Virus record (IMG/VR): IMGVR_UViG_3300010162_000393
Location: 1 to 64,000 of that record
DNA: 64,000 nt
Origin: a virus
Taxonomy: Duplodnaviria; Caudoviricetes
Direction: 5' to 3' (one strand)
The notes below the pieces were generated by a model that saw only the letters and a list, made by a program, of their open reading frames with translations, was not told the origin of the DNA and searched no databases. Both the position numbers and the translations under genes were made by a program. Positions 329 through 23,448 of the stretch are shown here, one piece after another. The number at the start of each line of letters is the position of its first letter. Position 1 is the stretch's first letter.

Positions 329-338
329 TTTTCTGATC
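329..338 (-). promoter_or_regulatory. GATCAGAAAA recurrent upstream motif
   Basis: One of eight minus-strand copies noticed, each upstream of a minus-strand gene start. Confidence 0.5.
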
Positions 339-372
339 CTAAATCTTTGGGTTTGTTTTATTGAACTACACT

Positions 373-381
373 CTATTTATA
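373..381 (+). promoter_or_regulatory. CTATTTAT putative late-promoter motif
   Basis: The same octamer precedes plus-strand genes at 9539, 23498, 34372 and 51831. Confidence 0.55.
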
Positions 382-396
382 AAAAAATAAAATACT

Positions 397-519
397 ATGG
401 TAAAGATGCACAAATATTATAATGAATGGTATTATGGCGAATACGCCGTAAATAGTTCCATTTTTCGCTACGGAAATAGTGTAGATTTATATAGAATCCG
501 TCGCCATAGGTACGAATAA
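397..519 (+). CDS. Possible 40-aa small or leader ORF
   Basis: ATG at 397 to TAA at 519, directly after the CTATTTAT motif. It overlaps a structured GC-richer segment. Confidence 0.3.
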   Translation: MVKMHKYYNEWYYGEYAVNSSIFRYGNSVDLYRIRRHRYE

Positions 520-533
520 TTTAAAATATTGTC

Positions 534-2450
534 ATGAAAATAATACCAAAACTTGGTGGTAAGATTAATGAGTATGTACTGAATGAAGCGGAACTTGTAG
601 TTGGGGCAAAACCATCGGATAGTAGTGAGACAACAGAACCAATGGGACAAGAAATTTCACGTATCGTTCCAAAACTTGATAAGGATAAAGACACGATAAG
701 TGTTAGTACAGATGTATTTGAATCCAATATACAGGAGTATAAGATAAAGGATATGAACCGATATGATACTTGGAAAGATGTATTTACTAAAGGTGTTCAG
801 GATGAAAAATGGAGAAAAAGTGGATTCATAAAAGTTGATTCTTATTATCTATCTCAAAATGTACCATTTACTGATAGTGATTTAAAATTTATTGAAAAAA
901 CATATTTTACACCTGGTTTTATAACACAAGATGTGCTTGGTGCTTATGGTGTTATATTGAAAAACGCTATTGGTCGCCGTTCTATATTATCAGAAGAGAT
1001 GAAAGTAAAAATAACTGAATTTGATAAAAGGTTAAAGGCACTAGTTAGAGGAACAGATATTAATAAGAAAAAAGAAATAAGTACAACGTTTGATCCTGCT
1101 AAAATTGCACGTTATCTTGTATGGCAAGGTAAAGATTCTTGGGCAGGTAATTTAGGAAATACGATGCGACTTGAAGAAAATGAAAAAGTTATTGGTTTAA
1201 TGTTAAGAAAAGAAACAGATAATATTTTAAGAGGTGGAAGTGAAAACTCTGCTATAACAAACGAATTATACGAACTAATTAAAAAACAAAGTTTAACTAA
1301 AACAAAGGCAAAAAATAAGGGTCTAGATGAAATAGAAGTAAAAGATTATATTCCTGTTAATGAATTAATATTATATGCTGTTCTAATTAGAGATACTGAA
1401 CTTGTAAATATAGCAATTAGCGCGGAAAAACAAAAAATAGATTTACAAAAACAGGGTAGAATAAAGGGTAAATTTACCAAAGTATTAGGAACAATGTTAT
1501 CCGATTTAGTTAAGGAAGAAGGAATGGAAGAAATCAAAAGTATATTATCAAGTGCAGGTTTAATATCATCATCCGAAGAAAAAATAATTCCAAAATTAGA
1601 AAATAGAACTATGGGTAAAACAATAATAATATCCGAAAGGCAAGCACAAATATTATCCTTACTAAGATTAAGAGAAAACAGCAATGCTATAAATGCAACG
1701 AAAGGTTCTGGTTACACAACACCTAAAGTTGGTGGTTATACTGCTCAACCGGGAGGTGGAACAGACCATGCAGCAGATTTGGAAAAAAAACGTAATAAGG
1801 GAAGACCGGCAGTAGATGCTACTAAAGATCAATTCAAACCGACCGATAAAATAGAAAAATCATTGATAGTTGATAAGGATAAGGTTTGTGATACTAAAAA
1901 GTTGAATGATTATTTCGTTAAGGAAGGTGTTGATTATTACAAAATAGTAAGTAAAAAAGATTTACTAAAAGAGTTTTTTTTTGCTGACGCACCGCCACCA
2001 CCTGATACCTACAAAGATCCATATGCTGATGCGGAATATCGTTATATAAATCAATCACCACATGATAAAGCAGTAAAAGATAGTTCAAAACTTGCTGCTC
2101 CGTGGCCAACCTGTCAAACAGATACTGCGGGAATCGAAAATTTTGTAAAAACTAATATAATGGGTAGTGATAATTATGATAGGATAATACAAAAAAATAA
2201 AGAAACTAGAGAAAAAACTGATAGTATTACTAATTCAGTAATACAAAAATATATTGATAATAATGTTATTAAACCAACAAAAAGTACGAGACCTAATACT
2301 AAAAGTTTTACTTTAGTAGATGAACCTGAAACCAGAGAGGAATTTATGAAAATATCAGATGAAATTGAAAGTGAATTACCAAAACATATTAGTGTTGGAA
2401 GAACAAGAAGAGATGGTGCTTATATAATAACTTTTCATTTAAGTAATTAA
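534..2450 (+). CDS. Hypothetical protein, probably virion (head-internal); carries an internal IIISERQ motif
   Basis: 638-aa ORF. Internal MGKTIIISERQ matches the N-terminus of the next gene. IxPKL occurs three times. Confidence 0.75.
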   Translation: MKIIPKLGGKINEYVLNEAELVVGAKPSDSSETTEPMGQEISRIVPKLDKDKDTISVSTDVFESNIQEYKIKDMNRYDTWKDVFTKGVQDEKWRKSGFIKVDSYYLSQNVPFTDSDLKFIEKTYFTPGFITQDVLGAYGVILKNAIGRRSILSEEMKVKITEFDKRLKALVRGTDINKKKEISTTFDPAKIARYLVWQGKDSWAGNLGNTMRLEENEKVIGLMLRKETDNILRGGSENSAITNELYELIKKQSLTKTKAKNKGLDEIEVKDYIPVNELILYAVLIRDTELVNIAISAEKQKIDLQKQGRIKGKFTKVLGTMLSDLVKEEGMEEIKSILSSAGLISSSEEKIIPKLENRTMGKTIIISERQAQILSLLRLRENSNAINATKGSGYTTPKVGGYTAQPGGGTDHAADLEKKRNKGRPAVDATKDQFKPTDKIEKSLIVDKDKVCDTKKLNDYFVKEGVDYYKIVSKKDLLKEFFFADAPPPPDTYKDPYADAEYRYINQSPHDKAVKDSSKLAAPWPTCQTDTAGIENFVKTNIMGSDNYDRIIQKNKETREKTDSITNSVIQKYIDNNVIKPTKSTRPNTKSFTLVDEPETREEFMKISDEIESELPKHISVGRTRRDGAYIITFHLSN

Positions 2451-2452
2451 AT

Positions 2453-4117: not shown

Positions 4118-4163
4118 AACACTTCAATTATTACATTTATGTTTATAAATATAACGATATTCG

Positions 4164-5255: not shown

Positions 5256-5302
5256 ATTTAACTTTTTTAAATAATAAATATAATCAGTTATAAATATACA
5301 AT

Positions 5303-5333
5303 AAAAAAGGGTACCCCACAAGTGAGATACCCC
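5303..5333 (-). terminator. Rho-independent terminator after the parB-like gene
   Basis: Minus strand reads GGGTATCTCAC-TT-GTGGGGTACCC-TTTTTT: a stem with G-U pairs followed by a U tract. Confidence 0.75.
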
Positions 5334-5352
5334 ATTTTTCAACCTAATCGCT

Positions 5353-6357
5353 TTATACTTCTTCGTTTACCGCTACTTTTTCGTCGTCAAGTAATGACGA
5401 ACCAAAAATGTGGTTTATAGCGTTTTGCATAGATTGACCGGAACGCAAATCTTCTAACAAGTCGTTAAGTTGTTCGCGTGTGAAATTCCATCTGCTCAAT
5501 GTATCTGTTACCAAACTAATCGCGTTGATTAGGCGTTCTTCCGCTGTTTGTTTAATATCCAAATACTTTGTCACGTTCAACTTACCGCTTTTGCCGGTAT
5601 CACCTTCTTCTTCTTCCGCCATCATAATCGCCCTTTCCAAACGGTTGCTTACTTCCTTTTTACGTGTGTAATCGTCAAGCATACCTTCTTCTTTTACTTT
5701 TTTGTCAAGTTGTCGAACATTGTTGGCGGTGACGTTATTTTTTTCGTCTTTAACTGCTTCTATAACGCTTTCGTCATATTCTAACAATTCAAGACAACTT
5801 TTCACATGGTTAACGCTTTTACCCAATCTTTGGGCAATTTCATCTTCCGTCAATCCAATTCGCAAGAACTTTTTGTAAGCGGTACCAAGTTCAATCGGAG
5901 AAAAACGTAAACTTTCGTTGGCATTTAACATATCCGAAATTCTGTCTGCTTCGTTGTTACCGGTTCTTTCCAACATTACAGGAACTCTGCAAATTGCTTT
6001 ATCAGTTCCTTCGAGTGAAGTAACCGCCCTAAAGCGACACTCCCCATCAATAATAATGTATTTGTAAACAGGTTCTCCATTTTCGGGGTTTTTTCCAATA
6101 TGCTCCCTTCGACATTCCAACGGGGTTAAAACTCCGTTTACAGCAATGTTTGCTGCCAACATTTCAATATGTTCCTTAACTCTTGTGGTTTGAAAATCAC
6201 GAACATTATGATTTTCATCAATCGTAATAAATCTTGGGTCCACCTGGTAAACATCATTCCTTTTGGTTTTGTTTGCCACTGTAGCAACATTCAAAATGTC
6301 ATTACTACTCTTCAACACGACTACGTCGTTCACTAAATCTAAATTTGTATCTTCCAT
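5353..6357 (-). CDS. ParB/RepB/Spo0J-family protein
   Basis: NVR motif, GVLTPL, IIDGECRFRA (GxxRxxA CTP-binding motif), NE, and a downstream HTH (LTEDEIAQRLGKSVNHV). Confidence 0.88.
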   Translation of the reverse strand: MEDTNLDLVNDVVVLKSSNDILNVATVANKTKRNDVYQVDPRFITIDENHNVRDFQTTRVKEHIEMLAANIAVNGVLTPLECRREHIGKNPENGEPVYKYIIIDGECRFRAVTSLEGTDKAICRVPVMLERTGNNEADRISDMLNANESLRFSPIELGTAYKKFLRIGLTEDEIAQRLGKSVNHVKSCLELLEYDESVIEAVKDEKNNVTANNVRQLDKKVKEEGMLDDYTRKKEVSNRLERAIMMAEEEEGDTGKSGKLNVTKYLDIKQTAEERLINAISLVTDTLSRWNFTREQLNDLLEDLRSGQSMQNAINHIFGSSLLDDEKVAVNEEV

Positions 6358-6399
6358 TTTATTTATTAAATTAGGTTAAAAAAATTTTTTAATACGTTC

Positions 6400-7284
6400 T
6401 CAATAAAATTTCAATAATTTTTTCTGATCACTCTTATGCCCCGTCCTACGAAAAGCATTTCTCATTTTCCGCATAGACCTGTGGTAATAATTTGAAACTC
6501 GGTGATTTGGGATACCCAATTTTTCTGCTATATCACTGAATTTGGTCAAAGGTTCGTAGTCTATACCATAGTATAGTTTTACGATTTCTTGTTCTGTATA
6601 AGTAAGATATTCCAAATACCTTCCAACAAGATATTTGTTATAATCCTCATTAATAACATTTACAATTTCATTACAAGATGAGTATGCGCTGTTAAATTCG
6701 TTGATACCGGAAACATATTGTTCATCATCTGCTGGAATGTCGATTGAAATAGAAAAAATGTTTGATAAATCATTTTCATCTACCAATATGTTAAACATTT
6801 CTTCAAGTTTCTGTTTAACTATATTGTTATTTGCTTCGATACCTTCTACTGCGAGAATTTTTTCTATTTCTTTAATCCGCTTTTTCAGTTGCGGATCAAT
6901 TCGTTTATGTATCAAACATTTCTTATTGATATATTGTGAAATATATGAATATATCCAATTGACCGCATAACTTATGAATTTGAAACCATAGGTGACATCA
7001 AACCTTTCAAGGGCAATTAATAAACCGATATTACCCTCAGATATCATATCCATTAGTTCAATATCTGTAAAGGCAAATTTCTTAGCTACTGCCACAACAA
7101 AACGTTGATTACATTGAACGATTTTATCCCTACTTTTCATATCACCATTTCTGTAAGCGTGAAAAAGTTCTACTTCTTCATCCGGTGATAGAATAGGATA
7201 AGAACTAATATCATTATAATATTTGTTTAGAAGGTCGCTTCTATGAAAATTTTTTGGGGTTACTCTTGTGTTGATTCTACGCAT
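6400..7284 (-). CDS. Sigma70 (RpoD/SigA-like) RNA polymerase sigma factor, copy 2
   Basis: Region 1.2 (LNKYYNDI..LSPDEEVEL), NQRFVVAVAKK, DMISEGNIGL, FKFISYAV and a region-4 HTH. Likely start is the ATG at 7284, overlapping the upstream stop. Confidence 0.9.
   Translation of the reverse strand: MRRINTRVTPKNFHRSDLLNKYYNDISSYPILSPDEEVELFHAYRNGDMKSRDKIVQCNQRFVVAVAKKFAFTDIELMDMISEGNIGLLIALERFDVTYGFKFISYAVNWIYSYISQYINKKCLIHKRIDPQLKKRIKEIEKILAVEGIEANNNIVKQKLEEMFNILVDENDLSNIFSISIDIPADDEQYVSGINEFNSAYSSCNEIVNVINEDYNKYLVGRYLEYLTYTEQEIVKLYYGIDYEPLTKFSDIAEKLGIPNHRVSNYYHRSMRKMRNAFRRTGHKSDQKKLLKFY
6418..6430 (-). promoter_or_regulatory. TGATCAGAAAAAA recurrent upstream motif
   Basis: Lies inside the 3' end of sigma copy 2, about 60 nt upstream of the parB start. 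Confidence 0.55.
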
Positions 7285-8338
7285 TTTTTTTGTACGAATA
7301 ATACGTGTGAACAATTTCAATAGAATTACACAACGTGTCTTGGATACTTTCTGGACTAAATACCGTTATTTTTGAAATTTGCATTGGAGTCATTTTCTTA
7401 TTCAAATGGTATCCCAAAAGAATTATTTCTACCTTATTCAGTAGTGTCACATATTTCTTTATGTCGGTTATTTCGCTTATTTTTGATCTTATCCGTAATA
7501 TTTCAAGCGCATTTTTTTGTATTTGTCTAATTCTTTCGGTGGTATATGAATATTTTTCTGCAATATCATCTAATGTATATTGTGAAAAAGAGTTAATACC
7601 ATGTGTTAATTCGATAATTCTCCTTTCAAATGGTAATAATATTGTTATATATTCATTTATCATCGATTTATTATCTTCATCTTCCATTAAAACATTCGCT
7701 CTATTTTCCGTATAAAACAAGTTATTGAAGTCATTTTCTGTTGGGGAAAAGTCTGAATGGTCGTCATAACCACCTATCGGTATATCAATAGAATTAATGG
7801 ATAAATCATACAAATCACTTTTTTCTATTATCTTAATATTGTATTGAGAATCCAATTCTTCCATCATTTCAATATCACTGATTTCTCTACCTTCAACGTT
7901 TCTGAATTTTTCCTTAATTTTATCAACATAAAATGTTGTCTTTTGTAAATTAGTTTTGGTTACTAATTCATTACCCATTAAAAATGCTTTGATTTCTCTT
8001 TGGATATACCATACAGCAAATGTTATGAACTTGTAACCGCTGTTGATATCAAATTTATCAATAGCTATTATTAATCCGATATTTCCCTCGCTGATTAAAT
8101 CAAGCAAATTTGTGTTGTTTGCAAATTTTTTCGCAACAGAAACAACAAATCTCTGATTTGATACTATTATTTTATTCTTAGCACTAAGATCGTTATTCTC
8201 TTTATATGCTTTGAATAACTCAACTTCCTGTTCTCTTGATAAAACTTGTTTACCTCGTATATCATTATAATAAGCGTTTAGTATATGAGAATTTTCGGTG
8301 AAAAAACCGACTTTTTTGGTATTGATTCGTCCTTTCAT
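7277..8338 (-). CDS. Sigma70 (RpoD/SigA-like) RNA polymerase sigma factor, copy 1
   Basis: SNQRFVVSVAKK, DLISEGNIGLIIAIDKFD, YKFITFAVW, region 4 TLDDIA...TTERIRQI, and a C-terminal extension. Confidence 0.92.
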   Translation of the reverse strand: MKGRINTKKVGFFTENSHILNAYYNDIRGKQVLSREQEVELFKAYKENNDLSAKNKIIVSNQRFVVSVAKKFANNTNLLDLISEGNIGLIIAIDKFDINSGYKFITFAVWYIQREIKAFLMGNELVTKTNLQKTTFYVDKIKEKFRNVEGREISDIEMMEELDSQYNIKIIEKSDLYDLSINSIDIPIGGYDDHSDFSPTENDFNNLFYTENRANVLMEDEDNKSMINEYITILLPFERRIIELTHGINSFSQYTLDDIAEKYSYTTERIRQIQKNALEILRIRSKISEITDIKKYVTLLNKVEIILLGYHLNKKMTPMQISKITVFSPESIQDTLCNSIEIVHTYYSYKKNA

Positions 8339-8404
8339 GTTGTTATATTTTTGATTAGGTTTGAAATTTCAAGATAAGAAAAGAGACAATAAAGAAAGTA
8401 AAAA

Positions 8405-8416
8405 TTTTTCTGATCA
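8405..8416 (-). promoter_or_regulatory. TGATCAGAAAAA recurrent upstream motif
   Basis: Intergenic, about 67 nt upstream of sigma copy 1. Shares AAGAGTGATCAGAAAAA with the 6418 copy. Confidence 0.6.
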
Positions 8417-8445
8417 CTCTTTTTTTGGTATGGTTCTATTCATGG

Positions 8446-8892
8446 TTAATGTCTTTTGAAATCTAAATACTTTGGTTTTGTAGGTTTATAATCAGTATCC
8501 CACAAACTACTTGTTATCATCAAGTCTGCGCTGTGTCTGTTACACGCCACAGGAACATTATGAATACGACATTGCCTTAACAACGCCTGTATGTCGGATT
8601 CGTGTGGGTTTGGATTCAAGTCGTCAATTAGGAAAATACAGAAATTGATATTCCCATTTACAACTTGAGCACCAAGTTCCAAGTCACCACCGATTGGACC
8701 TGATTTATAGAGGATAACATTTGTATTCGTACAACCTTCCTCTTCAAACATTTTTTTAACTAACCTGCCGGTTGTTCCGGTACAATATAGGTTGTGTTTA
8801 CAAAGAAATTTTACATTGTGTCTTGCCCATTCTATCATATCTACTTTTCTTCTGTCGTGTGATACAATGGCGATGTTTAATATTTTTTCCAT
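8446..8892 (-). CDS. mgsA: Methylglyoxal synthase
   Basis: IAIVSHDRRK, TGTTG, SGPIGGD, FLIDDLNPNPHESDIQALLR, NVPVACN: all hallmark MgsA motifs. Confidence 0.93.
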   Translation of the reverse strand: MEKILNIAIVSHDRRKVDMIEWARHNVKFLCKHNLYCTGTTGRLVKKMFEEEGCTNTNVILYKSGPIGGDLELGAQVVNGNINFCIFLIDDLNPNPHESDIQALLRQCRIHNVPVACNRHSADLMITSSLWDTDYKPTKPKYLDFKRH

Positions 8893-9488
8893 TATTGATT
8901 TGGTTCTATAATTTCTACTTCGTTTTGTTTGAGCATATTTTCATATTCGGTAATATCGAGTTTAGAATGTTTTCTGATCCATTCCTCTTTTAACCTTCTC
9001 GTTACTTCCGTATTAGGAACAATTCTTTTTCCATATTGAAATCTAAACGTTGCTTTATCCGCCCAACCATAAAAATCTGTTATGAATTGACCGACCGCAC
9101 CAGAACGTGATATTCCTGCATGACAATGAATGATATAGTTTTTCTTTTGATTTACTTCAATGAAATCTATTAACCTTTTCGCTTGTTCTGGATTAAAAGG
9201 ATGATAGGTTTTTCCATTAAACTCCTCCACCTTGTCAATGTCGTAGAATTTCATATTCAAAACGTTTGCGTGATTTTGTTTGAAATAATGTTCATCACCG
9301 ACACCATGTTTAAATGGCATGAAACTACTATCATCACATATTATTGAGATGATAGCAAGGTCTTTATAATCCTCGATATTGTAATCAGTGAATTTGTTTG
9401 TTTTCATTACCCTAACAAATTCACTTACCCCCATTACATGAATCAGGTATTTTTCCTTGACTGAAATGTCTTGCGTATTTATCTTCAT
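8892..9488 (-). CDS. Protein-tyrosine/dual-specificity phosphatase superfamily (CX5R)
   Basis: IHCHAGISRS P-loop, FYDI acid loop and a PN motif. Start placed at the ATG at 9488 because a promoter lies just upstream. Confidence 0.85.
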   Translation of the reverse strand: MKINTQDISVKEKYLIHVMGVSEFVRVMKTNKFTDYNIEDYKDLAIISIICDDSSFMPFKHGVGDEHYFKQNHANVLNMKFYDIDKVEEFNGKTYHPFNPEQAKRLIDFIEVNQKKNYIIHCHAGISRSGAVGQFITDFYGWADKATFRFQYGKRIVPNTEVTRRLKEEWIRKHSKLDITEYENMLKQNEVEIIEPNQ

Positions 9489-9506
9489 TTCCTTAAATTT
9501 TTGGGA

Positions 9507-9538
9507 CAAAAGTACTATAACAAAATATAATTTCCAAA
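9507..9538 (-). promoter_or_regulatory. Canonical Bacteroidota sigmaA promoter (TTTG-N20-TACTTTTG)
   Basis: -33 TTTG at 9538-9535, 20-nt spacer, -7 TACTTTTG at 9514-9507. It lies upstream of the phosphatase-mgsA pair. Confidence 0.7.
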
Positions 9539-9552
9539 CTATTTATGGATAT

Positions 9553-10359: not shown

Positions 10360-10388
10360 TTTCTATATTATTAAAAAAAATTCAAGTT

Positions 10389-10942: not shown

Positions 10943-11200
10943 TTAGTAGGTGGTTTCGTTCCATCTTTTTCGTAAGGAGTTTTGATGGTTTTTATCACTA
11001 TTTTTTCTCATTATTCTATCAGTTTTAAAAATACTGAGAATTTCATACAAACAACCTTCTATAGCACTACGTAAAGTATCGAACTTATAAAATTTACCTG
11101 TTTTTTTGTCAAGTGCTAACCACCCAAAATCTAACACCTCTACGTAATAATACTTTAACACATAGTATTTACGTATTTTCCTAAGTAATTTTGTTCTCAT
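10943..11200 (-). CDS. Hypothetical basic protein
   Basis: 85-aa ORF coupled (TGATG) to the methyltransferase stop. Confidence 0.7.
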   Translation of the reverse strand: MRTKLLRKIRKYYVLKYYYVEVLDFGWLALDKKTGKFYKFDTLRSAIEGCLYEILSIFKTDRIMRKNSDKNHQNSLRKRWNETTY

Positions 11201-12036
11201 CAGTAGTTCATATATAATGATTCGACCTTTGTTTTCGCTTTATTTGTACCACTAATGGTATTAACATTGAAATCAACTCTTTTCCACCCATTTCCTAAAA
11301 GAACATCATCATACAATTCACAACGATATCCGGAAACAAGGTATTTTGATTTTCCGTTTACAAGCAAATTGATGTATTTTTCTTGTGTTTCATCATCCAT
11401 ATCTACCGGATAACGACATTTTGTTCGAGTACAATGCGCATAAGGACTATCACAATAAAAGAAGTAGTCTGAATTATTATAATTTTCTATTATATCAAGA
11501 GCATCTCTGTTTAATATAATAAATCTCTGTATTTTTTCGTGTATTTCATACATTCCGTCAATAGAACTTAACATATCTGATACAGATTTAGAAGTTGTTC
11601 TTCTGATCGACATATTTTTACCAAAGGAAGCGTTATTACCACTGTAACTCATGCGATTCACGATGAAAAAGTGGTACGCACGTTCTTCAATAGAATACCC
11701 ATCTTTTTGTCCAGCTTCTTTTAACCATTCCAACGATTCATCAAAAATATCTTCTGAGTAAAATAGCAATTCTAGTTTTGATTTCAATTCTTCAAACGTT
11801 TCCTTATTTTGTAACACTTTGAAAAACGAATATATATTCTTATTTAAGTCATTGACTATGCAAGAACATTTCTTATTTGGTAGGTTTAATCCAACAACCA
11901 ATGACCCCATGAATGGTTCTACATAACTTACATAACTTTCAACCGGTGGAAAATGTTCGTATAAACTTGCTAACATATTTGATTTTCCGCCAAACGATCT
12001 GATACTTGAATTGATTTTCTTATCCTCCTTTGCCAT
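11200..12036 (-). CDS. D12-class (Dam-like) DNA adenine methyltransferase
   Basis: FGGKS, YVEPFMGS, NDLN, NRMSYSG. The catalytic motif reads DSPY instead of DPPY. Confidence 0.85.
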   Translation of the reverse strand: MAKEDKKINSSIRSFGGKSNMLASLYEHFPPVESYVSYVEPFMGSLVVGLNLPNKKCSCIVNDLNKNIYSFFKVLQNKETFEELKSKLELLFYSEDIFDESLEWLKEAGQKDGYSIEERAYHFFIVNRMSYSGNNASFGKNMSIRRTTSKSVSDMLSSIDGMYEIHEKIQRFIILNRDALDIIENYNNSDYFFYCDSPYAHCTRTKCRYPVDMDDETQEKYINLLVNGKSKYLVSGYRCELYDDVLLGNGWKRVDFNVNTISGTNKAKTKVESLYMNY

Positions 12037-13919: not shown

Positions 13920-14001
13920 AAAAAAAATGTGTTACTATTCTTACAATAATACATTTTATTTTTTTTAATTAGAAATAAATGATTTTCCGCAAAAATACCC
14001 C

Positions 14002-15240
14002 TTAATTGTGACATAATTTTGGAAATTTATTAGTTAATAATAACTTAATCGGGTTACATCCAAACCCTATACTGGCTGTCTGAAATACAGAATCACCAGA
14101 TGCCTTTCGCAATATGTTGAACGCAGCATTTACATCAGCATTTAACAGAATACCTTTCGAGGTTCTGAATAAACCCCGATTTACCCTTTTGCCAACATAA
14201 ACATCATGATGCCCAACCTCCTCCAAATCCAAAGAACTGCATTTTGACGTGTGAGATTCGTTGAAATCAACCAATCTTAGTCCTTGTCTTTCAGATTTGT
14301 ATCGCAACTGATTTATAAAAGGTTCAAATGGAATATTAACAAAATTTTGGTTTGTCTTTTTTCCAAGATTCACTTCCTGTTTCCAACCACTGTTGTAACC
14401 AACAATAATTGTGTTAATGTCGTGTTCAACACATTTGGAAACTATATTTTTGCTTGCCTTGTGTAAGTAATCCTTAACCTTGTTGTTGCGTTTCAAGGTT
14501 AGTTTTCTGATTTTTTTACTTGTTTTTCTACGGTGACATTTTTCTAAATTTGATTTTAATTTTGATAATTTCTTGTTATAAAACTGATTGATTGATTTCA
14601 ACGGTCTGCCGTTGATAATAAATGGTTTGGTTTCTGTGGAAATACAGGTTGCCAAATTATTGACACCAATGTCAATGGAAAGGTATTTTCCATTGTTTTC
14701 TTTTGGTTGTATAACAGATGTTTCGTAAACAACCTCTGCGACATAATATTCCGATTTTGGGATAAATCTAACTTGTTTGATTTGTTCTCTAGGGATATTG
14801 GTTTTCAATGGGGTAATACCCTCTTTTTTGGGAAATGTGATATAACCGTTTTTATACCCAAACTGACAATATGTATATATCAAAACGTTTCTTCCTTCAG
14901 TTTTGTGTTTATATTTTGGAAATTTTGGTTTTCCGTTAAAACCTGTTTTATTAGTTTTCCACTTTTTGATAGATTCAAAGTAAGATTTAAAATCTTTGTC
15001 AAGCAACATCAAGGTTTGTTGAGATGAGTGGTTGCTTATTGCTTTATAATCAACCTGATTTTCTGTTTTGAATTTTTTTTCTAATTCAGTGTATCTTATC
15101 CATTTACCGGTTTTTAGGAATTCTTGTTTTACAACATATAAAGCGGCGTTGTATAAGTTTTTCGACTTAAAACATGCTTCGTCTATCCGTTTATAAGACG
15201 GATGATTTTGTTTGATAATATGTTGTTCAACCAACTTCAT
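14002..15240 (-). CDS. tnpB: RNA-guided endonuclease TnpB family protein
   Basis: SKNLYNAALY N-terminus, RuvC-I SIDIGVNNL, IIVGYNSGWKQ, NESHTSK and RuvC-III NADVNAAFNI. Confidence 0.93.
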   Translation of the reverse strand: MKLVEQHIIKQNHPSYKRIDEACFKSKNLYNAALYVVKQEFLKTGKWIRYTELEKKFKTENQVDYKAISNHSSQQTLMLLDKDFKSYFESIKKWKTNKTGFNGKPKFPKYKHKTEGRNVLIYTYCQFGYKNGYITFPKKEGITPLKTNIPREQIKQVRFIPKSEYYVAEVVYETSVIQPKENNGKYLSIDIGVNNLATCISTETKPFIINGRPLKSINQFYNKKLSKLKSNLEKCHRRKTSKKIRKLTLKRNNKVKDYLHKASKNIVSKCVEHDINTIIVGYNSGWKQEVNLGKKTNQNFVNIPFEPFINQLRYKSERQGLRLVDFNESHTSKCSSLDLEEVGHHDVYVGKRVNRGLFRTSKGILLNADVNAAFNILRKASGDSVFQTASIGFGCNPIKLLLTNKFPKLCHN

Positions 15241-15262
15241 TTTAACAAGATGATTTTAAGAA

Positions 15263-15275
15263 TTTTTTCTGATCA
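15263..15275 (-). promoter_or_regulatory. TGATCAGAAAAAA recurrent upstream motif inside the TnpB element
   Basis: Lies between the inverted repeat and the tnpB ATG. Confidence 0.55.
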
Positions 15276-15317
15276 TCATTTATCAGGGGTATTCTTGCGG
15301 AAAATCATTTAGAAATA

Positions 15318-16235
15318 TCACGAATTACTAATCCTCGTACATGCTTCATTACCACCTTTCATAAAAAGATGTGCAAAACTACCTCTACCGTGACACATGT
15401 TTATAAACCTATCTAGTGTTACAAACAGTTTTTTTGGATCAGAATAGTTTCTATCAAACTCTGCTGTTAGATTAAAAAATCCATCCAACGGTGAGTCAGT
15501 TTCAAATGCACCGCTACCATCTTCGCTATCACCGAAATTGCTTTCAATATATCTTGTGAATGGTATCCAATACGTTCTATTAAAATATCTTGATCTTTCA
15601 TCGGTACATTCTTCTTTGGTAACAGGTATTTTTTCATCTCCTGTTAGATCTCGCCACATACGATTAAGGGTTAATTCACCTTTTGAGTTTGTAATTCTTG
15701 GATCTAAACTAGGACCACTTGTCAGGTATGAATTTGCTGCTAATTGTGATAGGTTATCTTTTGCATTTGCAACCCAATCCATAATTCTCGGAACCCAATA
15801 ATCGTCATAAGCGCCGGATTGTGGTTTCATATAACTGTACTGTTGAATACACCTTAAATATTCATCAGGATCTATTAATTTCCAACGTTGTTTTCTACCG
15901 CTTTTGAAACCCTCATATACCTGTCGCACTACGTTGTTCGGATTGTGAAGAGATAAGGTGTCGGTCTTCAAATTTGACATAAATTCTGAAAACGTGTTAT
16001 ACGCCTCAGTCAAAAGAATATCGGTAACGTTATGTAAAATTTCAAAAATCGGATGATTTCTATCAATTTTACCTTTACGCATTTCAATCAAAAGATCATG
16101 ATTGAATACGGTTTTATCACCTCTTTTTATTTCCAACAATGTTTGTGGTTTATAGTTTGTTGGTTTAGCCGGATCGTATCCCATTAAAAACTTGAAACGT
16201 CTTGTCGCTTCATTAATAACTTCTTGTTTATTCAT
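15318..16235 (-). CDS. Hypothetical protein, tandem paralogue 1 of 3
   Basis: EVINEATRRFKFLMGY N-terminus, LIDPDEYLRCIQQYSYMKPQSGAYDDYW core and a CHxRG..MKGGNEA C-terminus shared with its neighbours. Confidence 0.88.
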   Translation of the reverse strand: MNKQEVINEATRRFKFLMGYDPAKPTNYKPQTLLEIKRGDKTVFNHDLLIEMRKGKIDRNHPIFEILHNVTDILLTEAYNTFSEFMSNLKTDTLSLHNPNNVVRQVYEGFKSGRKQRWKLIDPDEYLRCIQQYSYMKPQSGAYDDYWVPRIMDWVANAKDNLSQLAANSYLTSGPSLDPRITNSKGELTLNRMWRDLTGDEKIPVTKEECTDERSRYFNRTYWIPFTRYIESNFGDSEDGSGAFETDSPLDGFFNLTAEFDRNYSDPKKLFVTLDRFINMCHGRGSFAHLFMKGGNEACTRISNS

Positions 16236-16277
16236 TTTTAATTTTTTTATTAAAATAATTTTGATAAAATTTTCTGA

Positions 16278-17192
16278 TCAAGAGTTGCTAATCCTTGAAC
16301 ACGCTTCGTTTCCACCTTTCATAAATATATGTCCTAAACCACCTCTGTTGTGACACATGTTTTTCAATCTATCCAACGTTACAAACAGTTTTTTTGGATC
16401 TGAGTAATTTTTATCAAAATCGGCAACAATATTAAATAGACCATCTAATGGTGAATCTGTTTCGTAACTTTCAGAACCTTCACCATATCTTGTTTGAATA
16501 TATTTTGTGAATGGTCTCCAATAATTATCAAAAAACTCTCTTTCGGCGATAGAATCGTTACCACACTGACCCGGTCTGTATGGTATTTCTTCATCACCTG
16601 TTAGATTATACCACATTAATGCAAGAAGATTTTCTCCTTTTGCATTTTCATTATCCTGTTCAAGAGTTGGACCACTACATAAGTATGAATTTGCAGCAAA
16701 TTGTGCAACATTATCTTTTGCATTTGCTACCCATTCCATGATTATACGTGCCCAATAATCGTCATATGCACCAGACTGTGGTTTCATATAAGAGTATTGT
16801 TGGATACACCTTAAGTATTCATCAGGATCTATCAATTTCCAACGTTGCGCTCTACCACTTTTGAAACCTTCATACGTTTGTCGAATCACATTATTTGGGT
16901 TTCGTAGGGAATCTCTGTCTGTCTTCAACTTTGACATAAATTCTGAGAACGTATCGTATGCTTCGGTTAGAAGAATATCATTCACATTGTGTAAAACCTC
17001 AAAAATAACATGTTTTTTATCAATTTTACCTTCACGCATTTCTACCAAAACGTCATGGTTGAACACGGTTTTATCACCCATCTTGATTTCCATCAGAGAT
17101 TGTGTTTTGTAATTTCTTGGTTTAGCAGGATCATATCCCATTAAAAACCTGAAACGTCTTGTTACTTCATTAATTACTTCTTCTCTACTCAT
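16278..17192 (-). CDS. Hypothetical protein, tandem paralogue 2 of 3
   Basis: Same conserved blocks. Its TGA stop overlaps a TGATCAGAAAA motif. Confidence 0.88.
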   Translation of the reverse strand: MSREEVINEVTRRFRFLMGYDPAKPRNYKTQSLMEIKMGDKTVFNHDVLVEMREGKIDKKHVIFEVLHNVNDILLTEAYDTFSEFMSKLKTDRDSLRNPNNVIRQTYEGFKSGRAQRWKLIDPDEYLRCIQQYSYMKPQSGAYDDYWARIIMEWVANAKDNVAQFAANSYLCSGPTLEQDNENAKGENLLALMWYNLTGDEEIPYRPGQCGNDSIAEREFFDNYWRPFTKYIQTRYGEGSESYETDSPLDGLFNIVADFDKNYSDPKKLFVTLDRLKNMCHNRGGLGHIFMKGGNEACSRISNS

Positions 17193-17237
17193 TTTAAATA
17201 ATTTTTATATCAAAATAATTTTAATAAATTTTTCTGA

Positions 17238-18140
17238 TCAAGAGTTGCTAATCATTTTACTAGCTTCATTTCCTCCTTTCATAAAAATATGTGCAAAACC
17301 ACCTCTTGAATGACACATGTTTTTCAATCTGTCCAATGTTACAAACAATTTTTTAGGGTCAGTGTAATTTTTATCAAATGCAGCAACAATATTGAATAAA
17401 CCATCTAACGCTGAATCTGTTTCATAGGCTTCAGCATAATTGGAACCAATATATCTAAAAAATGCACCCCAGTGTTCTTTGAAAAACACCTTTTCTGCTT
17501 CTGAACTATCGGTACATTCTCCTGGTCTGTATGGTATTTTTTCATCACCGGTTAAATTATACCACAATAAAGCATGAAGATTTTGATTATTTGAATTTCC
17601 CTCATATCGTTTAAGTGTTGGACCGTTGCATAGATATGAATTTGCTGCCAACTGTGCAACATTATCCTTTGCGTTTGCAACCCACTCCATAATTCTTGGA
17701 ACCCAATAATCGTCGTATGCCCCGGATTGTGGTTTCATATAAGAGTATTGTTGGATACATCTTAAATATTCATCCGGGTCGATTAATATCCAACGTTGTT
17801 TTCTACCGCTTTTGAAACCTTCGTAAACCTGTCGAACAATGTTATTTGAATTTGAAATAGATTGTTTATCTGTTTTCAAATCCTCCATAAATTCTGAAAA
17901 GGTATTGTACGCCTCAGTCAAAAGAATATCCGTAACATTATCTAAAATCTCATAAATAATATGATTTTTACTAATATTGCCGTTACGCATTTCAACTAAA
18001 AGAGAGTGATCAAATACAGTTTTATCACCTCTCTTAATTTCGTCTAATGTTTGTGGTGCGTAGTTCGTTGGGTTAGCGGGATTATATCCCATCAAAAACC
18101 TGAAACGCCTTGTTGCCTCATTGATAACTTCTCTTTCCAC
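17238..18140 (-). CDS. Hypothetical protein, tandem paralogue 3 of 3
   Basis: Same conserved blocks. GTG start preceded by TTATTTATA on the minus strand. Its TGA stop overlaps a TGATCAGAAAA motif. Confidence 0.88.
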   Translation of the reverse strand: MEREVINEATRRFRFLMGYNPANPTNYAPQTLDEIKRGDKTVFDHSLLVEMRNGNISKNHIIYEILDNVTDILLTEAYNTFSEFMEDLKTDKQSISNSNNIVRQVYEGFKSGRKQRWILIDPDEYLRCIQQYSYMKPQSGAYDDYWVPRIMEWVANAKDNVAQLAANSYLCNGPTLKRYEGNSNNQNLHALLWYNLTGDEKIPYRPGECTDSSEAEKVFFKEHWGAFFRYIGSNYAEAYETDSALDGLFNIVAAFDKNYTDPKKLFVTLDRLKNMCHSRGGFAHIFMKGGNEASKMISNS

Positions 18141-18164
18141 GTCATATTTTTCTTATAAATAACA

Positions 18165-21100
18165 CTAAAAGGGAAAAAGATCTTCATCTCTATATACTTT
18201 TCTAGTTAGTTTTTCTTCACTAACATCTTCATCCACTTTTTCTATAAGGTCTTCATAAGAGTTTTCGCAGATATCAGCAAGACTACCGATTTTTACATCA
18301 TATTTTTTAGAATAGAAGAAACCATTTTTTGAGTTGAAGTTTTCAACGAGTTTTTCGACTATAGTTTCTTGTTCTACATCAGAAGATAATATTTGATTAT
18401 ATAATTCTACCTCTGATTTAATATGTTCTTGTTTTAAAATTTCTTGTCTTTCTAAATATTCGGTTTTAATTGTTTCCCAAGTACCCATTACTTCTATAAG
18501 TTCCGGTGTATTCAAGAATGGTGGAACATTTTCTGGTAATTTTTCTAAAACATCTGGTACAGATAACCAAAACCTAATCTCCTTATCTTCCATAGTGTAT
18601 AACTCTTCCAAAGAATCTTGGTCGGTTGGTTTTTTGGGCATCCCTGATACTAATTGTGCTTTAATTTTATCATAACATCTAATATCTTTTGGGTCTGTTA
18701 TTAGAATTTCATTACGAATATCAGGGTTGAAGCAAACTAATAATCCACTAATACGTTTATTGAATTGTTCAATGTATTTTGGAATATTATATAAAATAGG
18801 ATTTTCATCAAATATATCCTCATTACCATAATATTCTATATCACTGTCTAATATTTTTTCATCAATTCTAATACAATTTAACTCATGTTTATAATGTAAT
18901 ATTTCTTTATCTTGAAGTGGTTGTCCTCTTTTACCATAAACAATATTACCAGTTTTTTTATCAATTCTATCTACTTTTATGGGATTGCCTTCACCATCTA
19001 AATTGTAAACAGGGGTTTTTACAACATCCCCTGTTCCCTTTTTATCACCAATATTGATATAATAAATGGTATCACCAGGGTTTACGTTAATATTCTCTCT
19101 AATAGCGAGTTCATACCATGCTTGTTTCGCCTTATCATTTCCCAATTTGTTTTTTCCGCTAACAGTTTCTTTATACTGTTTCAAAGAAACTTTTATTTTA
19201 CCAATAGAGGCAATTTGTTTTAATGGTATTCTACGATTAAATATTTTTGTGATATAATCATAGTAATTTTTTAAAAATTGATAACCATTTTCTTCTAATA
19301 ATAGTGGTAAGTTTGTGTCAATGAAGGATTCGATAAACTTCGGCATTTTCTTTGATTTGATTGAATTACCAACAAGTTTTATTTTACCGTTATCCAATAA
19401 GTCTGCATAGTTTTTTCGACTGAAATATATTGAACTTGGTACGATTTCATCTAAACCTAAACCCATTTTTTCACGCATAAATAAATCATTAAATTCTGAA
19501 CAATATGCGTCAATTCCCTTTGTTTCTTTACCTTCTTTTGTGTTTCTGTTTAACCCCTTTTCAATGTATGTATATTCTTTATTTATATTTCGATAAGTGA
19601 AGTTCACGCCGTCTGTATCAGCAATAATTGGTTCAAATCCCCTATCCATCATCCATTTTATCATTAATCGTAAACATTGTCTTGCAGTACAGGTAATTCT
19701 CTCACCACAGGAAACATCGCCCCATGGGAAAATATTCTCAGCGGAGTAAGATCCGAAAAATCCATTTGCGCATATCTTTAAAGGAAGTTGTAACTTATCA
19801 TATCTATTTTCTAATATTACCAAATTTCTAATTTCATTTTCACTAACATTTTCTTCCTTTAATTTTTTGATTTCTTTTCCGGTGTTTTTTTTCAATCCTT
19901 TATATCTTTCGCGTTCTGATAAAACATGATCTAATAATGCTTTGAATACACCACTAACATCTAATTTTGGAAAAATATCCCATGTTAGTGTTATTGCAGG
20001 ATAAAGTGAATTAAAATCGTATTTTACCACATCCTTTACAAATCCGGTCTTCCATAATCTTGACAAACCGCCTGTAAATGGTCTGAGTTTTCCTGTTAAT
20101 GGTATTGCAATATTATTTTCATACGAATATGCTAATAACATACTTTTCCAAACTGCGCTAGTCCCCATAGTACTAGTTCGTTGATAGGTTACAGGTAATA
20201 ATTTACATAAAAAATAGTTTGGTGAATTATAGATATATTCAACTCTATCACCCTCATATAAGTCATCTAATAAATATCTATCTGATAGATATTCTCCGGT
20301 AACAATATGTTCATCTTTGTTTAATATTTCGGTTTCTGATTTCAATCTCCATTCGCCATTTTCTTCATTCAAAACATAGTTTTCTTCTTTGTCATTGTAA
20401 ATTTCTGCAACTCTATTACCGGGAATATATACGCGATTAGGTTTTTTGACTTTTGCGTATTCGGCAGCATATTTCAAACTACCTGATTTGAAGTTACTGT
20501 CTATTGCTTGCGCTCGTCTTACTGCATGAAGTGAATCTATAATAGTATGATTAGGAAATACAGTAGGAAAGTAATATTCCATTTCACCACCAAGTTTTAA
20601 AACCTGTTGTTTTTGTTTTTTATATATTTTCTCACCGGTGTATATCAACGACATCATACCAAACCAATCGTCATAGGTATCAACATTTTTATAACGTTTT
20701 TTGATGTTGATTAGTTTTGAATCTAAATCTTTAATATGTTGAGTATTTTCTGTCCATGAATACCAATCAAAATCCTTTGATAATATTCTACTTCGCTTTA
20801 ACAAAAATTCCCAATCGAAGTTTTCACTATTATGTCCTGATATACAATCCGGATTTATTTGTCCAAGATAATATAAAAAATATTCTATTGCTTTTAGTTC
20901 GGATATATTTTCATTAACATGAATAATTTTTTCAAATCCTCGATTGGTTCTCATACCGATTTGGGTTATTTGACAATATTCCGGATTTAAACCTGTTGTT
21001 TCAATATCCCAAGTAAATCTTAACAGATCATCATAGTCGTCATAACCTTTGAAAAATCGTTTTCCTGTGTGTATTAGAAACATTTCCACAGGGGAAACTG

Positions 21101-21557
21101 ATAGAAAATGTCTTCTACCTTCAATTTCAGAATAAAAAACAGATGCTTTTAGATTCCAATTCAACGCTGTTTCAAAAAACTTTTGAAATGCGGTGTATGA
21201 CATCGCTTTATTGGCATAGAATAAAACGCGGTATCCTTCCGACATTCTTTCATGTTCAAAACCATCTGCATCTTTTGTTTGTAATCCTTTACAAGAGATA
21301 TGTTTTTTCCTCATTTCATCTTGTAATGTACTTCTATCCCCGTCAAATAATTTTTTGGATATGGTTGCGGTTGCCCAAACAAATGGATATAACTCAACTT
21401 CGCTACACATTACCCTATTGTTATCATCACGAGAATATACTCTTACAACATTATCGTTATAACCACACTCTACATTTGATATTCGTTTTTGAGGATCTCT
21501 TCCATTTAAAAATTTGTCTATTTTGTCTTGTTCTATCATTTTAATTTGTGTCTTCAA
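18165..21557 (-). CDS. Family B DNA polymerase with 3'-5' exonuclease
   Basis: ExoI WDIETTG, ExoII HNSENFDW, motif A YDFNSLYP, motif B KICANGFFG, motif C ADTDG and KNYA. Confidence 0.95.
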   Translation of the reverse strand: MKTQIKMIEQDKIDKFLNGRDPQKRISNVECGYNDNVVRVYSRDDNNRVMCSEVELYPFVWATATISKKLFDGDRSTLQDEMRKKHISCKGLQTKDADGFEHERMSEGYRVLFYANKAMSYTAFQKFFETALNWNLKASVFYSEIEGRRHFLSVSPVEMFLIHTGKRFFKGYDDYDDLLRFTWDIETTGLNPEYCQITQIGMRTNRGFEKIIHVNENISELKAIEYFLYYLGQINPDCISGHNSENFDWEFLLKRSRILSKDFDWYSWTENTQHIKDLDSKLINIKKRYKNVDTYDDWFGMMSLIYTGEKIYKKQKQQVLKLGGEMEYYFPTVFPNHTIIDSLHAVRRAQAIDSNFKSGSLKYAAEYAKVKKPNRVYIPGNRVAEIYNDKEENYVLNEENGEWRLKSETEILNKDEHIVTGEYLSDRYLLDDLYEGDRVEYIYNSPNYFLCKLLPVTYQRTSTMGTSAVWKSMLLAYSYENNIAIPLTGKLRPFTGGLSRLWKTGFVKDVVKYDFNSLYPAITLTWDIFPKLDVSGVFKALLDHVLSERERYKGLKKNTGKEIKKLKEENVSENEIRNLVILENRYDKLQLPLKICANGFFGSYSAENIFPWGDVSCGERITCTARQCLRLMIKWMMDRGFEPIIADTDGVNFTYRNINKEYTYIEKGLNRNTKEGKETKGIDAYCSEFNDLFMREKMGLGLDEIVPSSIYFSRKNYADLLDNGKIKLVGNSIKSKKMPKFIESFIDTNLPLLLEENGYQFLKNYYDYITKIFNRRIPLKQIASIGKIKVSLKQYKETVSGKNKLGNDKAKQAWYELAIRENINVNPGDTIYYINIGDKKGTGDVVKTPVYNLDGEGNPIKVDRIDKKTGNIVYGKRGQPLQDKEILHYKHELNCIRIDEKILDSDIEYYGNEDIFDENPILYNIPKYIEQFNKRISGLLVCFNPDIRNEILITDPKDIRCYDKIKAQLVSGMPKKPTDQDSLEELYTMEDKEIRFWLSVPDVLEKLPENVPPFLNTPELIEVMGTWETIKTEYLERQEILKQEHIKSEVELYNQILSSDVEQETIVEKLVENFNSKNGFFYSKKYDVKIGSLADICENSYEDLIEKVDEDVSEEKLTRKVYRDEDLFPF

Positions 21558-22887
21558 TATTTACTTCTTCACTATCATTCGCCTTAGATTCCATACCAAG
21601 AAACGAAAAACATTTCAATTTGTATACTTCTATACCAACAGTTTCTTTGCGAATAACAATTCCCTCAAACGGAACTTTGTTTTCACAATCTGGGTCATCC
21701 ATTTCCATATTCCATGTTTTTTCATTCCTTAATCTATAAAGTAAATTACTACCCCAATGTTCAGAAACTTCAATCAAATCCGGATATAAATCTTTCAATT
21801 TACCATAATACAATTCTTTAACGGAAGTTAATCCGTTTTGTTTGCACCATTCCTTTACCCATTGTGTGGGAAATTCATATGTTTTTCCGGATGGTGTTGT
21901 TAATGTGATTCGGTATATGATAATTTTAAACTCACCTTCCGAACACCCATAATCATAATTTTTTTGAATGAATTTATAACTACCAGGTAAATAACCACAC
22001 AATTCACAATAAACTGTCATTCCTTCAAGTAAATGTGGAAGTAATATCTCATTTGCCTTACCCCAAACATCCACATTATAGAATCCTGCACCAACATCTT
22101 TGTTGATAAATCTATTTTTAACAACAGTTCTGGAAGAATATACATTACCGTATTCACTTTCTTGTACTTTTACACCAAACCATTTTGCAATTTTTTCTTT
22201 CAATGACAATTTACGATTAACCAATACCTTTCCGATACAAGCAGAAGTGCCGTGTATCTTTGAACTGATTTGTACAATATCATCCGGATTCAATTTATGA
22301 ATATTCCGCTGTAATTGTTCGGTATCAATATGAAATTTCCACTGATTTTCGACTAACCTGTCAAATTGTCTTAATTTTTTATCGTGTTTACTTCTCTTGG
22401 TTGTTGGGCCAGACTTTTCCTGCGATCTAACAACATATTTGTTAGAAAACAACACCCCATTAATGGTATCAAAATCACAGTCTAAATAATCTTCAATATT
22501 ATCAATAACTAATTTTGATTGCCAATAATATAACCAGTGAATTGGAAATATGAATCCTTCCGAAGGGACTTCACGCAACTTCACCGCACGAACTCTACCT
22601 TTTTTATTGAAAAAACCTCTTTCCTTGTTGTCGGCGTTTAATTCGGTATCTTCAAACTGGTTGTTCAAACTAAGAAAATCGCTATTAATTTGAGATTCAA
22701 CTGGACAATAAATCGCAATATCACCAAAACGGAAGGTTTCCTTTCTGGTGATAACGTTGAATCCCATTATAGATATTATTTCTAACCTATCTGCATTTTC
22801 GTGGTTACGAATATTATCTATTTTTATAACCCGACAAGCGTAGTTCGGATTAAACTTTTCAGACTGTGAAAAAATACTCTTTGCCAT
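21541..22887 (-). CDS. RNA ligase, DRB0094-like (N-terminal OB-fold plus nucleotidyltransferase domain)
   Basis: HENADRLE and RVRAVKLREVPSEG OB-fold; SKIHGTS motif I, YCEL, and EGIVIR motif IV. Confidence 0.85.
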   Translation of the reverse strand: MAKSIFSQSEKFNPNYACRVIKIDNIRNHENADRLEIISIMGFNVITRKETFRFGDIAIYCPVESQINSDFLSLNNQFEDTELNADNKERGFFNKKGRVRAVKLREVPSEGFIFPIHWLYYWQSKLVIDNIEDYLDCDFDTINGVLFSNKYVVRSQEKSGPTTKRSKHDKKLRQFDRLVENQWKFHIDTEQLQRNIHKLNPDDIVQISSKIHGTSACIGKVLVNRKLSLKEKIAKWFGVKVQESEYGNVYSSRTVVKNRFINKDVGAGFYNVDVWGKANEILLPHLLEGMTVYCELCGYLPGSYKFIQKNYDYGCSEGEFKIIIYRITLTTPSGKTYEFPTQWVKEWCKQNGLTSVKELYYGKLKDLYPDLIEVSEHWGSNLLYRLRNEKTWNMEMDDPDCENKVPFEGIVIRKETVGIEVYKLKCFSFLGMESKANDSEEVNIEDTN

Positions 22888-23146
22888 TCTTTACTTTTTT
22901 AACTAATGTTATTCTACCCTTTGTTGCCATTGCGAACACCTCTTCTTTTGTGTACCCTTTTTTCAAAAGTTCTTTTGCTTCGTCATTTGAAGTGTTGAAC
23001 TTTGCAATACAAACATACCCTTTTTGTATGTATTTAAACTTCTGCCGGGATGCTACCACAACAATTCTTCCCTCTGGGGATTTTATCACAAAATCAATCA
23101 TGTTATTAATATTTAAACGTTTTAAACCTTGCTTTTCCTGCTTCAA
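22859..23146 (-). CDS. Hypothetical protein
   Basis: 95-aa ORF in the minus-strand operon. The true start may be the downstream MIDFV. Confidence 0.55.
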   Translation of the reverse strand: MKQEKQGLKRLNINNMIDFVIKSPEGRIVVVASRQKFKYIQKGYVCIAKFNTSNDEAKELLKKGYTKEEVFAMATKGRITLVKKVKNGKEYFFTV

Positions 23147-23384
23147 TCACTCTTTGAATCATTGTGTCAAAGTCTAATTGAAATACATCGCTTCTCCATT
23201 CACCTTTCCACACACCTATTAGTGTTCTGTTATCCACCGGGATTAAATTGTCTTCGACAAAACTTTCAAAGTCTGTTTTACCACCTAAATTGTACGCCTT
23301 TTGAACTATCTTACCGTCAACAATTTTTGTTACGATAACAGGATTCAATGGCGTGATTGGAAATTTTTCGTTATCCGTCCGCAT
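23106..23384 (-). CDS. Hypothetical protein
   Basis: 92-aa ORF with a GVWKGEWRSDVF block. First gene downstream of the 23436 motif. Confidence 0.7.
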   Translation of the reverse strand: MRTDNEKFPITPLNPVIVTKIVDGKIVQKAYNLGGKTDFESFVEDNLIPVDNRTLIGVWKGEWRSDVFQLDFDTMIQRVIEAGKARFKTFKY

Positions 23385-23435
23385 AATATTTTTATTTTAA
23401 AATTTAACATTTGGATAACAATAAAATTTTAACAA

Positions 23436-23448
23436 TTTTTTCTGATCA
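23436..23448 (-). promoter_or_regulatory. TGATCAGAAAAAA recurrent upstream motif
   Basis: Lies in the divergent intergenic region, about 52 nt upstream of the operon leading to RNA ligase and DNA polymerase. Confidence 0.6.

Follow-up and report, generated by a model that had tools for sequence, protein, structure and literature searches.

A bipartite, gene-co-oriented element with promoter-like features in an uncultivated jumbo phage, and its respelling in a sister phage

What is the short motif that recurs, always on the same strand, shortly before the minus-strand genes of IMG/VR virus record IMGVR_UViG_3300010162_000393? The stretch analysed here, referred to as the window, comprises the first 64 kb of that record (G000, 136,864 bp), which derives from an uncultivated jumbo phage whose host is also uncultivated. 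An earlier note, made from the letters of the window, had reported eight copies of the motif, GATCAGAAAA, all of them minus; a recount returned the same eight (329, 6420, 8406, 8970, 15265, 16270, 17230, and 23438), the coordinates given before being off by 0-2 nt. Only 0.22 copies are expected and none of 100 shuffles reaches eight, while the complete 137-kb record holds 14 exact copies, again all minus. The motif makes up the upstream half of a bipartite element that spans 30 bp, hereafter designated class A, which is very likely to be a promoter.

The class A consensus obtained by alignment of the G000 copies reads tGATCAGAAAA, then wwtTnT, then ttwTaTTr. The upstream box, ATCAGAAAA, occupies positions 2-10 and the downstream box, TTwTaTT, positions 22-28, on either side of an AT-rich spacer, and T14, T16, T25, T27, and T28 are invariant in 13 of the 14 exact copies. 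Conserved blocks fall at positions 1-10 and 22-28 in 13 out of 13 sites with a fixed spacer, the conserved upstream box being 10-13 bp long. Five window copies had been said to continue into a second block, and GATCAGAAAAWWTTNTYRAAAT does match exactly those five (0 expected), yet a second block is shared by 13 of the 14 copies in the record. A position weight matrix (PWM) built from 13 G000 sites scores the real sites at 22-37 bits and the background at no more than 16 bits, and it recovers one further, degenerate site in G000 (109929-109958). The exact 10-mer at G000 120183, which lies antisense in a plus-strand gene and lacks the second block, was treated as a chance occurrence.

The end of G000 (136772-136864) overlaps by 93 nt the start of IMG/VR contig 3300010167_000015 (G001, 135,149 bp; the overlap corresponds to positions 1-93 of L103), inside a 33-nt tandem repeat. 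Because of this overlap, and because a 268,981-bp contig on record encodes an identical sigma factor of 353 amino acids (aa), G001 was taken as the continuation of G000, and the two probably adjoin in a single phage genome of ~270 kb or more that was split at the 33-nt repeat. Counts given for this phage refer to G000 plus this inferred continuation (272 kb in total), and genes are our own crude open reading frame (ORF) calls. G001 contains eight exact 10-mers, seven of which show the full bipartite form (six plus, one minus); the other one, at 128618, is intragenic without a second block and was also attributed to chance. The PWM adds a near-exact plus-strand site (87350), which brings the full sites of G001 to eight (seven plus, one minus), each of them before an ATG. 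Since these sites are mostly plus and each is co-oriented with its own gene, the minus-strand bias in the window is due to gene orientation, and the strand specificity formerly ascribed to the motif is not one of its properties.

Each of the 22 full sites of this phage has a co-oriented ORF start 5-58 nt downstream, a situation that applies to 3.8% of strand-specific positions in the background (binomial P ~5e-32). The genome-wide test of positional enrichment that had been recommended thus yields a distribution that is not random. In the window, 24-77 nt separate each 10-mer from the minus-strand ATG that comes next, in agreement with the ~20-80 nt estimated before, and four copies overlap the 3' end or the stop codon of the upstream gene, as had also been observed. 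The element is dispersed, asymmetric, always co-oriented with genes, and not clustered.

The overlap of several copies with the end of an upstream co-oriented gene would suit a signal acting at the RNA level, such as a processing site or a leader element in polycistronic transcripts. Nevertheless, RNA folding at the 22 sites gave no signal (mean z -0.03), and the fixed spacing of the two blocks is typical of sigma-type promoters. Moreover, three sites (310, 23419, and 79562) are placed in divergent intergenic regions where an upstream co-oriented gene is absent, which fits transcription initiation and not RNA processing. A function in RNA is accordingly extremely improbable.

The genes that follow the window copies, all on the minus strand, are those named previously, namely parB, the sigma pair, tnpB, the paralogues, and the ligase/polymerase operon. 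The element at 6401-6430 (37.4 bits), which overlaps the 3' end of the gene for a 294-aa sigma factor, lies 43 nt from parB (5353-6357) and opens a complete unit, in which the gene (read from 6357 to 5353) is closed by a strong intrinsic-terminator-like hairpin on the same strand (5308-5333) with an 11-pair stem and a T tract. The copy at 8387-8416 (31.6 bits; gap of 48 nt) heads the pair of sigma-70-family genes, that of 353 aa (7277-8338) and then that of 294 aa (6400-7284), both minus. Another one, at 8951-8980, is embedded in the 3' part of a phosphatase-like gene and precedes an MGS-like gene (8446-8892). Two out of three paralogues are served, one (15318-16235) by the element at 16251-16280 (33.4 bits; gap of 15 nt) and the other (16278-17192) by that at 17211-17240 (36.4 bits; gap of 18 nt), each element overlapping the stop codon of the paralogue upstream. 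Finally, the copy at 23419-23448 (36.0 bits), in one of the divergent intergenic regions, heads two small ORFs (23106-23384 and 22859-23146), an RNA ligase gene (21541-22887), and the PolB gene (18165-21539); a PHROGs search returned nothing for the small downstream ORFs. Beyond the window, class A precedes the genes of three more HNH/DUF7487 homing endonucleases, two Bro-N/KilA-N/ANT proteins, an AAA ATPase, and an HD/kinase protein, as well as a ThyX-like gene. No structural gene has been found among the class A targets.

The two remaining window copies belong to selfish elements, which in this phage (one TnpB copy and four homing-endonuclease genes) bear the phage's own promoter-like element. 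In TnpB copy 1, the class A element (15246-15275, minus) lies between the left inverted repeat and the ATG of tnpB (14002-15240), and its gap of 5 nt leads to the prediction of a leaderless transcript. TnpB copy 2, near 91.4 kb, is devoid of class A and shows instead, in the stretch G000 91404-91440 (L290:7404-7440), a host-type -7-like TAAATTTG (TAnnTTTG) box 4 nt before its ATG. This difference between the two copies speaks for the idea, raised from the window, that the one inside TnpB reflects adaptation to the phage programme. With regard to the homing endonucleases, four HNH/DUF7487 paralogues hold a class A site each: window 2-283(-), a gene fragment whose ATG lies 26 nt from the element at 310-339 (minus; 30.3 bits), G000 107670-109922(-), G000 109956-111389(-), and G001 69399-70910(+). 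Two of these four sites are found at 5-6 nt spacing, and leaderless mRNAs are predicted for them.

The structural genes appear to be marked in another way. A distinct single 8-bp AT-rich box, CTATTTAT, is located 14-57 nt before structural and other genes, co-oriented with them on both strands. Its plus-strand copies in the window are found at 373-380, 23498-23505 (terminase operon), 34372-34379, and 51831-51838 (the last two at giant fibre genes), and the copies no more than 70 nt from a start amount to 14 of 22 in G000, 24 of 30 in G001, and 49 of 69 in a sister phage, G005. This box and class A never occur on the same gene, although both stand back to back in four divergent regions (window 310-380 and 23419-23505; G000 79562-79600; and G001 (L104) 37307-37343, in record coordinates). 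Two divergent regions share a nearly identical junction, in which the class A box, in reverse complement, is directly followed by CTATTTATAG. The sequences therefore contain at least two promoter-like classes, splitting non-structural from structural genes, and CTATTTAT is likely to represent a late promoter class.

The conservation of class A was followed in the sister phage, G005 (IMG/VR 3300010049_000009), a complete genome of 367,155 bp whose sigma factor is 58% identical and which has 184 of 289 genes in common with this phage, at a median amino-acid identity of 63%. No exact GATCAGAAAA is present in G005. Instead, it exhibits 93 sites of the form (G/A)(C/G)ATCGGAWTAAyAT-N7-TTATATT in a register identical to that of class A, which retain ATC at positions 2-4, G6, A7, T25, T27, and T28, and in which ATCGGAWTAA replaces ATCAGAAAA. 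These sites run in the direction of their genes, whose start is usually 5-40 nt away, and orthologous ones have been identified before parB, the MGS-like gene, the head of the ligase/PolB operon (a homologous small ORF), the AAA ATPase gene, and two others. Even the copy embedded in the phosphatase-like gene has been respelled, with an A5-to-G5 switch by which Gly takes the place of Arg in a peptide that is otherwise conserved. This respelling of a whole regulon between sister phages points to a reader encoded by the phage, and it is likely that the specificity for class A is phage-encoded.

Other relatives are scarce. A 10-kb megablast query had no match among GenBank phages, a single-protein IMG/VR search with the 353-aa sigma found no relative, and the only close relatives in an alignment-based search were the sister phage and a fragment of it. 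A metagenome scan added one close contig (L209) and two short contigs. The ATCAGAAAA spelling plus a TATT block is exhibited by two short metagenome contigs whose sigmas are 60% and 55% identical. Four sigma homologues (P0002, P0003, P0004, and P0006) are 61-73% identical, and L209 (a 60% match in the metagenome scan) may be the contig of one of them. At a larger distance, crude k-mer enrichment over ~70 loci around sigma homologues of 25-36% identity showed no comparable motif.

The respelling also bears on a proposal made for the motif because of its core, that it might be an operator, a ParB/parS-type binding site, or a Dam (GATC) methylation switch instead of a promoter. TGATCA is palindromic, GATC is present in all class A sites of this phage, and the phage encodes ParB together with a D12-class (Dam-like) adenine methyltransferase (window 11200-12036(-)); in addition, GATC is depleted, with an observed/expected ratio of 0.58 here and ~0.3-0.4 in the sister phage. 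However, position 1 of the G005 sites is C in 63% of the 93 cases (CATC at positions 1-4) and GATC appears in only 36%, so that neither GATC nor the palindrome is conserved. This loss has taken place although ParB is retained at 62% identity and the methyltransferase at 76%, so that none of Dam methylation, a palindromic operator, and parS qualifies as the primary function. The sites also depart from parS, which is palindromic, orientation-independent, and confined to few copies near parB, in being asymmetric, gene-co-oriented, and dispersed over the genome. This explanation is thus very improbable, although in this phage alone the promoters could be modulated by methylation at the box.

As regards the reader of class A, each of the two phages has a pair of genes for RpoD-like sigma factors, those of the sister phage being of 304 and 369 aa, and a Pfam search for RNA polymerase beta/beta' (Rpb1, Rpb2) in three records gave no matches, a search that divergent polymerases could escape. 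The 353-aa sigma shows a canonical region 4.2 (TTERIRQ), followed by an extension of ~65 aa (window 7277-7486(-)) with confident predicted helices (predicted local distance difference test, pLDDT, 82-90) that is kept in orthologues. Pfam returned nothing for this C-terminal extension, which, according to the predicted model, may constitute an extra DNA-binding or docking domain. The 294-aa sigma, in which regions 1.2, 2, and 4 are matched, is the candidate cognate sigma: in the alignment, its region 4.2 holds IPNHRVSNYYHR in place of the SERVRQLKK of cellular-type relatives, with region 2.4 altered as well. The relatives include unnamed 287-aa four-region sigmas, which, judging from their size and domains, we infer to be cellular, Bacteroidota-type primary sigmas. 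The orthologues of the 294-aa sigma vary in the -35-reading helix, which is NHRAAGLFHR in G005, the phage with ATCGGA boxes, and a third variant in L212, where ATCAGA is kept. The co-variation of helix and box is therefore no more than suggestive. Additional sigma-like genes are candidates for reading other promoter classes, namely two short ones above the Pfam cut-off in the sister phage (G005 289018-289713(+) and 329745-330326(+)) and, in this phage, a 271-aa ORF with a weak region-2 match (G001 66858-67673(+)), for which a PHROGs search returned nothing.

On balance, we consider it somewhat probable that class A is a phage promoter for non-structural genes, used early or in the middle of infection by the host core polymerase together with a phage sigma factor, probably that of 294 aa. 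According to this model, the host core RNA polymerase would be directed to class A by a phage-encoded specificity factor, and transcription would start 4-5 nt past the downstream box, in the manner of Bacteroidota, which would put the boxes at ~-33 and ~-7. With its helix for reading the -35 element completely rewired, the 294-aa sigma would be the likeliest reader, an assignment that we make tentatively and could readily see fall to another factor. Class A would drive DNA metabolism, regulators, the sigma genes themselves, and selfish elements, and the structural genes would use CTATTTAT, giving rise to a temporal programme. The possibility of a phage promoter class, already contemplated in the earlier note, is therefore favoured by the bipartite form, the co-orientation, the proximity to starts, the conservation in the sister phage, the separate structural motif, and the presence of phage sigma genes.

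An early promoter could also be read by the unmodified host holoenzyme with the host primary sigma. In fact, the sigma genes themselves lie behind a class A element, and 60 of the 93 G005 sites are concentrated within the last 35 kb of that genome (332000-367155; L206-L208), nearly all on one strand and before small genes (median 91 aa), an arrangement resembling early host-takeover regions. From its sequence, this terminal cluster looks like an early or host-takeover region; the contigs of this phage do not include its counterpart. Many sites in the terminal cluster then show a third conserved block that resembles TATAAT, ~6 nt past the downstream box. The primary-sigma promoters of Bacteroidota consist of a -33 TTTG and a -7 TAHHTTTG, with the start 4-5 nt past the -7 box, and promoters of the E. 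coli type are not expressed in these bacteria (PMC6847099). Class A, however, has no TTTG at -33 and does not keep the full set of near-invariant bases of the -7 element (T-12, A-11, T-8, T-7, T-6, and G-5), since the equivalent of A-11 is A in seven sites and T in six, and that of G-5 is G in 6 of 13 sites here and in 25 of the 93 found in G005. In addition, the box differs between sister phages, whereas the specificity of housekeeping sigmas is constant across a phylum, and a pattern scan of 185,579 species genomes gave only single, scattered matches among the matches listed. Recognition by the host holoenzyme is hence quite improbable.

Matches to E. coli-type promoters are not enriched in this phage, and those to the host-type pattern TTTG-N17-21-TAnnTTTG are few and barely above shuffles. 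Within the region spanned by the motif, a single good host-type match stands near a start, at 9507-9538(-), and the gene that follows it after 18 nt is the phosphatase-like one at the head of the sigma-containing row. The sister phage does not conserve this match, which was discarded.

A different division of labour is known from T4, whose middle promoters combine a MotA box at -30 with a sigma-70 -10 element and depend on the appropriation of sigma by AsiA/MotA (PMC2988021, PMC6755090). By analogy, a phage activator bound to the upstream box could replace -35 recognition, with the host sigma or the 353-aa sigma reading the downstream box. The upstream box, 10-13 bp long and centred near -29, resembles a MotA box in these respects, the downstream block is loosely similar to the Bacteroidota -7 element (PMC6847099), and the phage matches the T4-related "group 2" jumbo phages, which are polymerase-less and encode sigma factors (PMC7824862). 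The respelling of the regulon would suit any phage-encoded reader, this one included. Conversely, the class A box is unlike the MotA box in sequence, the downstream block does not hold A-11 and G-5, which host promoters keep almost invariably, and the 294-aa sigma with its rewired region 4.2, which is at hand, would otherwise have no assigned role. Neither AsiA nor the MotA C-terminal domain (PF09010, PF09158) was found in the three records, a weak test, as the search also gave none in control genomes. In view of the length of the box, we regard this mechanism as the main rival, yet as rather unlikely.

Several observations weigh against a promoter read by the 294-aa sigma. The test with 22 sites is based on crude ORF calls, and 13 of these sites served to train the PWM. 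The upstream box, with its 10-13 bp, exceeds the usual -35 hexamer and also fits an activator site. Sigma helix and box do not co-vary cleanly, as L212 has the ATCAGAAAA spelling together with the third helix variant. Furthermore, the 60 sites of the G005 terminal cluster stand in an early-looking region, which would be expressed before any phage sigma is made, and the sigma operon is itself behind a class A site, so that a purely phage-sigma-dependent class needs a bootstrap. Candidates for this bootstrap are weak recognition by the host, read-through, or a factor delivered with the virion. The last of them can be taken further: class A would be the earliest class, and its reader, a phage sigma or an activator, would enter with the virion and reprogramme the host polymerase at time zero. 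This is hinted at by the 60 early-looking sites and by the position of class A at the head of the sigma operon, given that a newly made sigma cannot start the class, and it is improbable. If true, an injected sigma-type specificity factor would represent a new takeover route for a polymerase-less phage.

The literature searched yielded no account of the class A motif, nor of any transcription signals in jumbo phages of Bacteroidota. Judged from its sequence features, class A very probably adds to a well-known kind of phage gene control, that of promoters served by phage sigma factors. For an uncultivated jumbo phage of the Bacteroidota type, it supplies a map of the transcription programme that can be put to the test, and the respelling of the whole regulon between sisters (ATCAGAAAA to ATCGGAWTAA), even within coding sequence, is a clear case of cis/trans co-evolution. 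Should the 294-aa sigma read class A, the two phages would provide two natural orthogonal sigma/promoter pairs for Bacteroidota.

The middle promoters of Bacillus phage SPO1 are read by gp28. Compared with the SPO1 sigma cascade (PMC13401047) and with Salmonella phage 7-11, whose gp47 late promoters read GTAAtg-(16)-aCTA (PMC8948821), the present system is similar in that no polymerase of its own was detected in the records searched, sigma-70-family proteins are encoded, and a conserved two-block motif of non-host type marks one gene class, related phages bearing different spellings at similar genome positions. In contrast, class A looks Bacteroidota-like in its -33/-7 geometry, has a longer upstream box (10-13 bp), and would drive non-structural genes and the sigma genes themselves.

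With the middle promoters of T4, class A has in common a phage-specific box of ~9-10 bp that replaces the -35 element, a -10-like element, and an association with prereplicative or DNA-metabolism genes in a polymerase-less T4-like phage. Nonetheless, the sequence of the box is unrelated, and RpoD-like sigmas are present here and absent in T4. The second box, CTATTTAT, shares with the T4 late promoter TATAAATA (gp55/gp33) the form of a lone AT-rich box of 8 bp before structural genes, but on the sense strand it reads as the T4 box in reverse complement, and no clear gp55 homologue was found, the weak region-2 match in the 271-aa ORF being the only one.

Lastly, with respect to the primary-sigma promoters of Bacteroidota, class A differs in its -33 box, which is ATCAGAAAA or ATCGGAWTAA and not TTTG, and in a downstream block that is one T shorter in this phage. 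It resembles them in the placement of its blocks, which would be ~-33 and ~-7 for a start 4-5 nt past the downstream one, in the AT-rich conserved positions between both blocks, in a T/A-rich downstream block that often ends in G, and in the genes that it precedes, since those of this phage are devoid of Shine-Dalgarno sequences.

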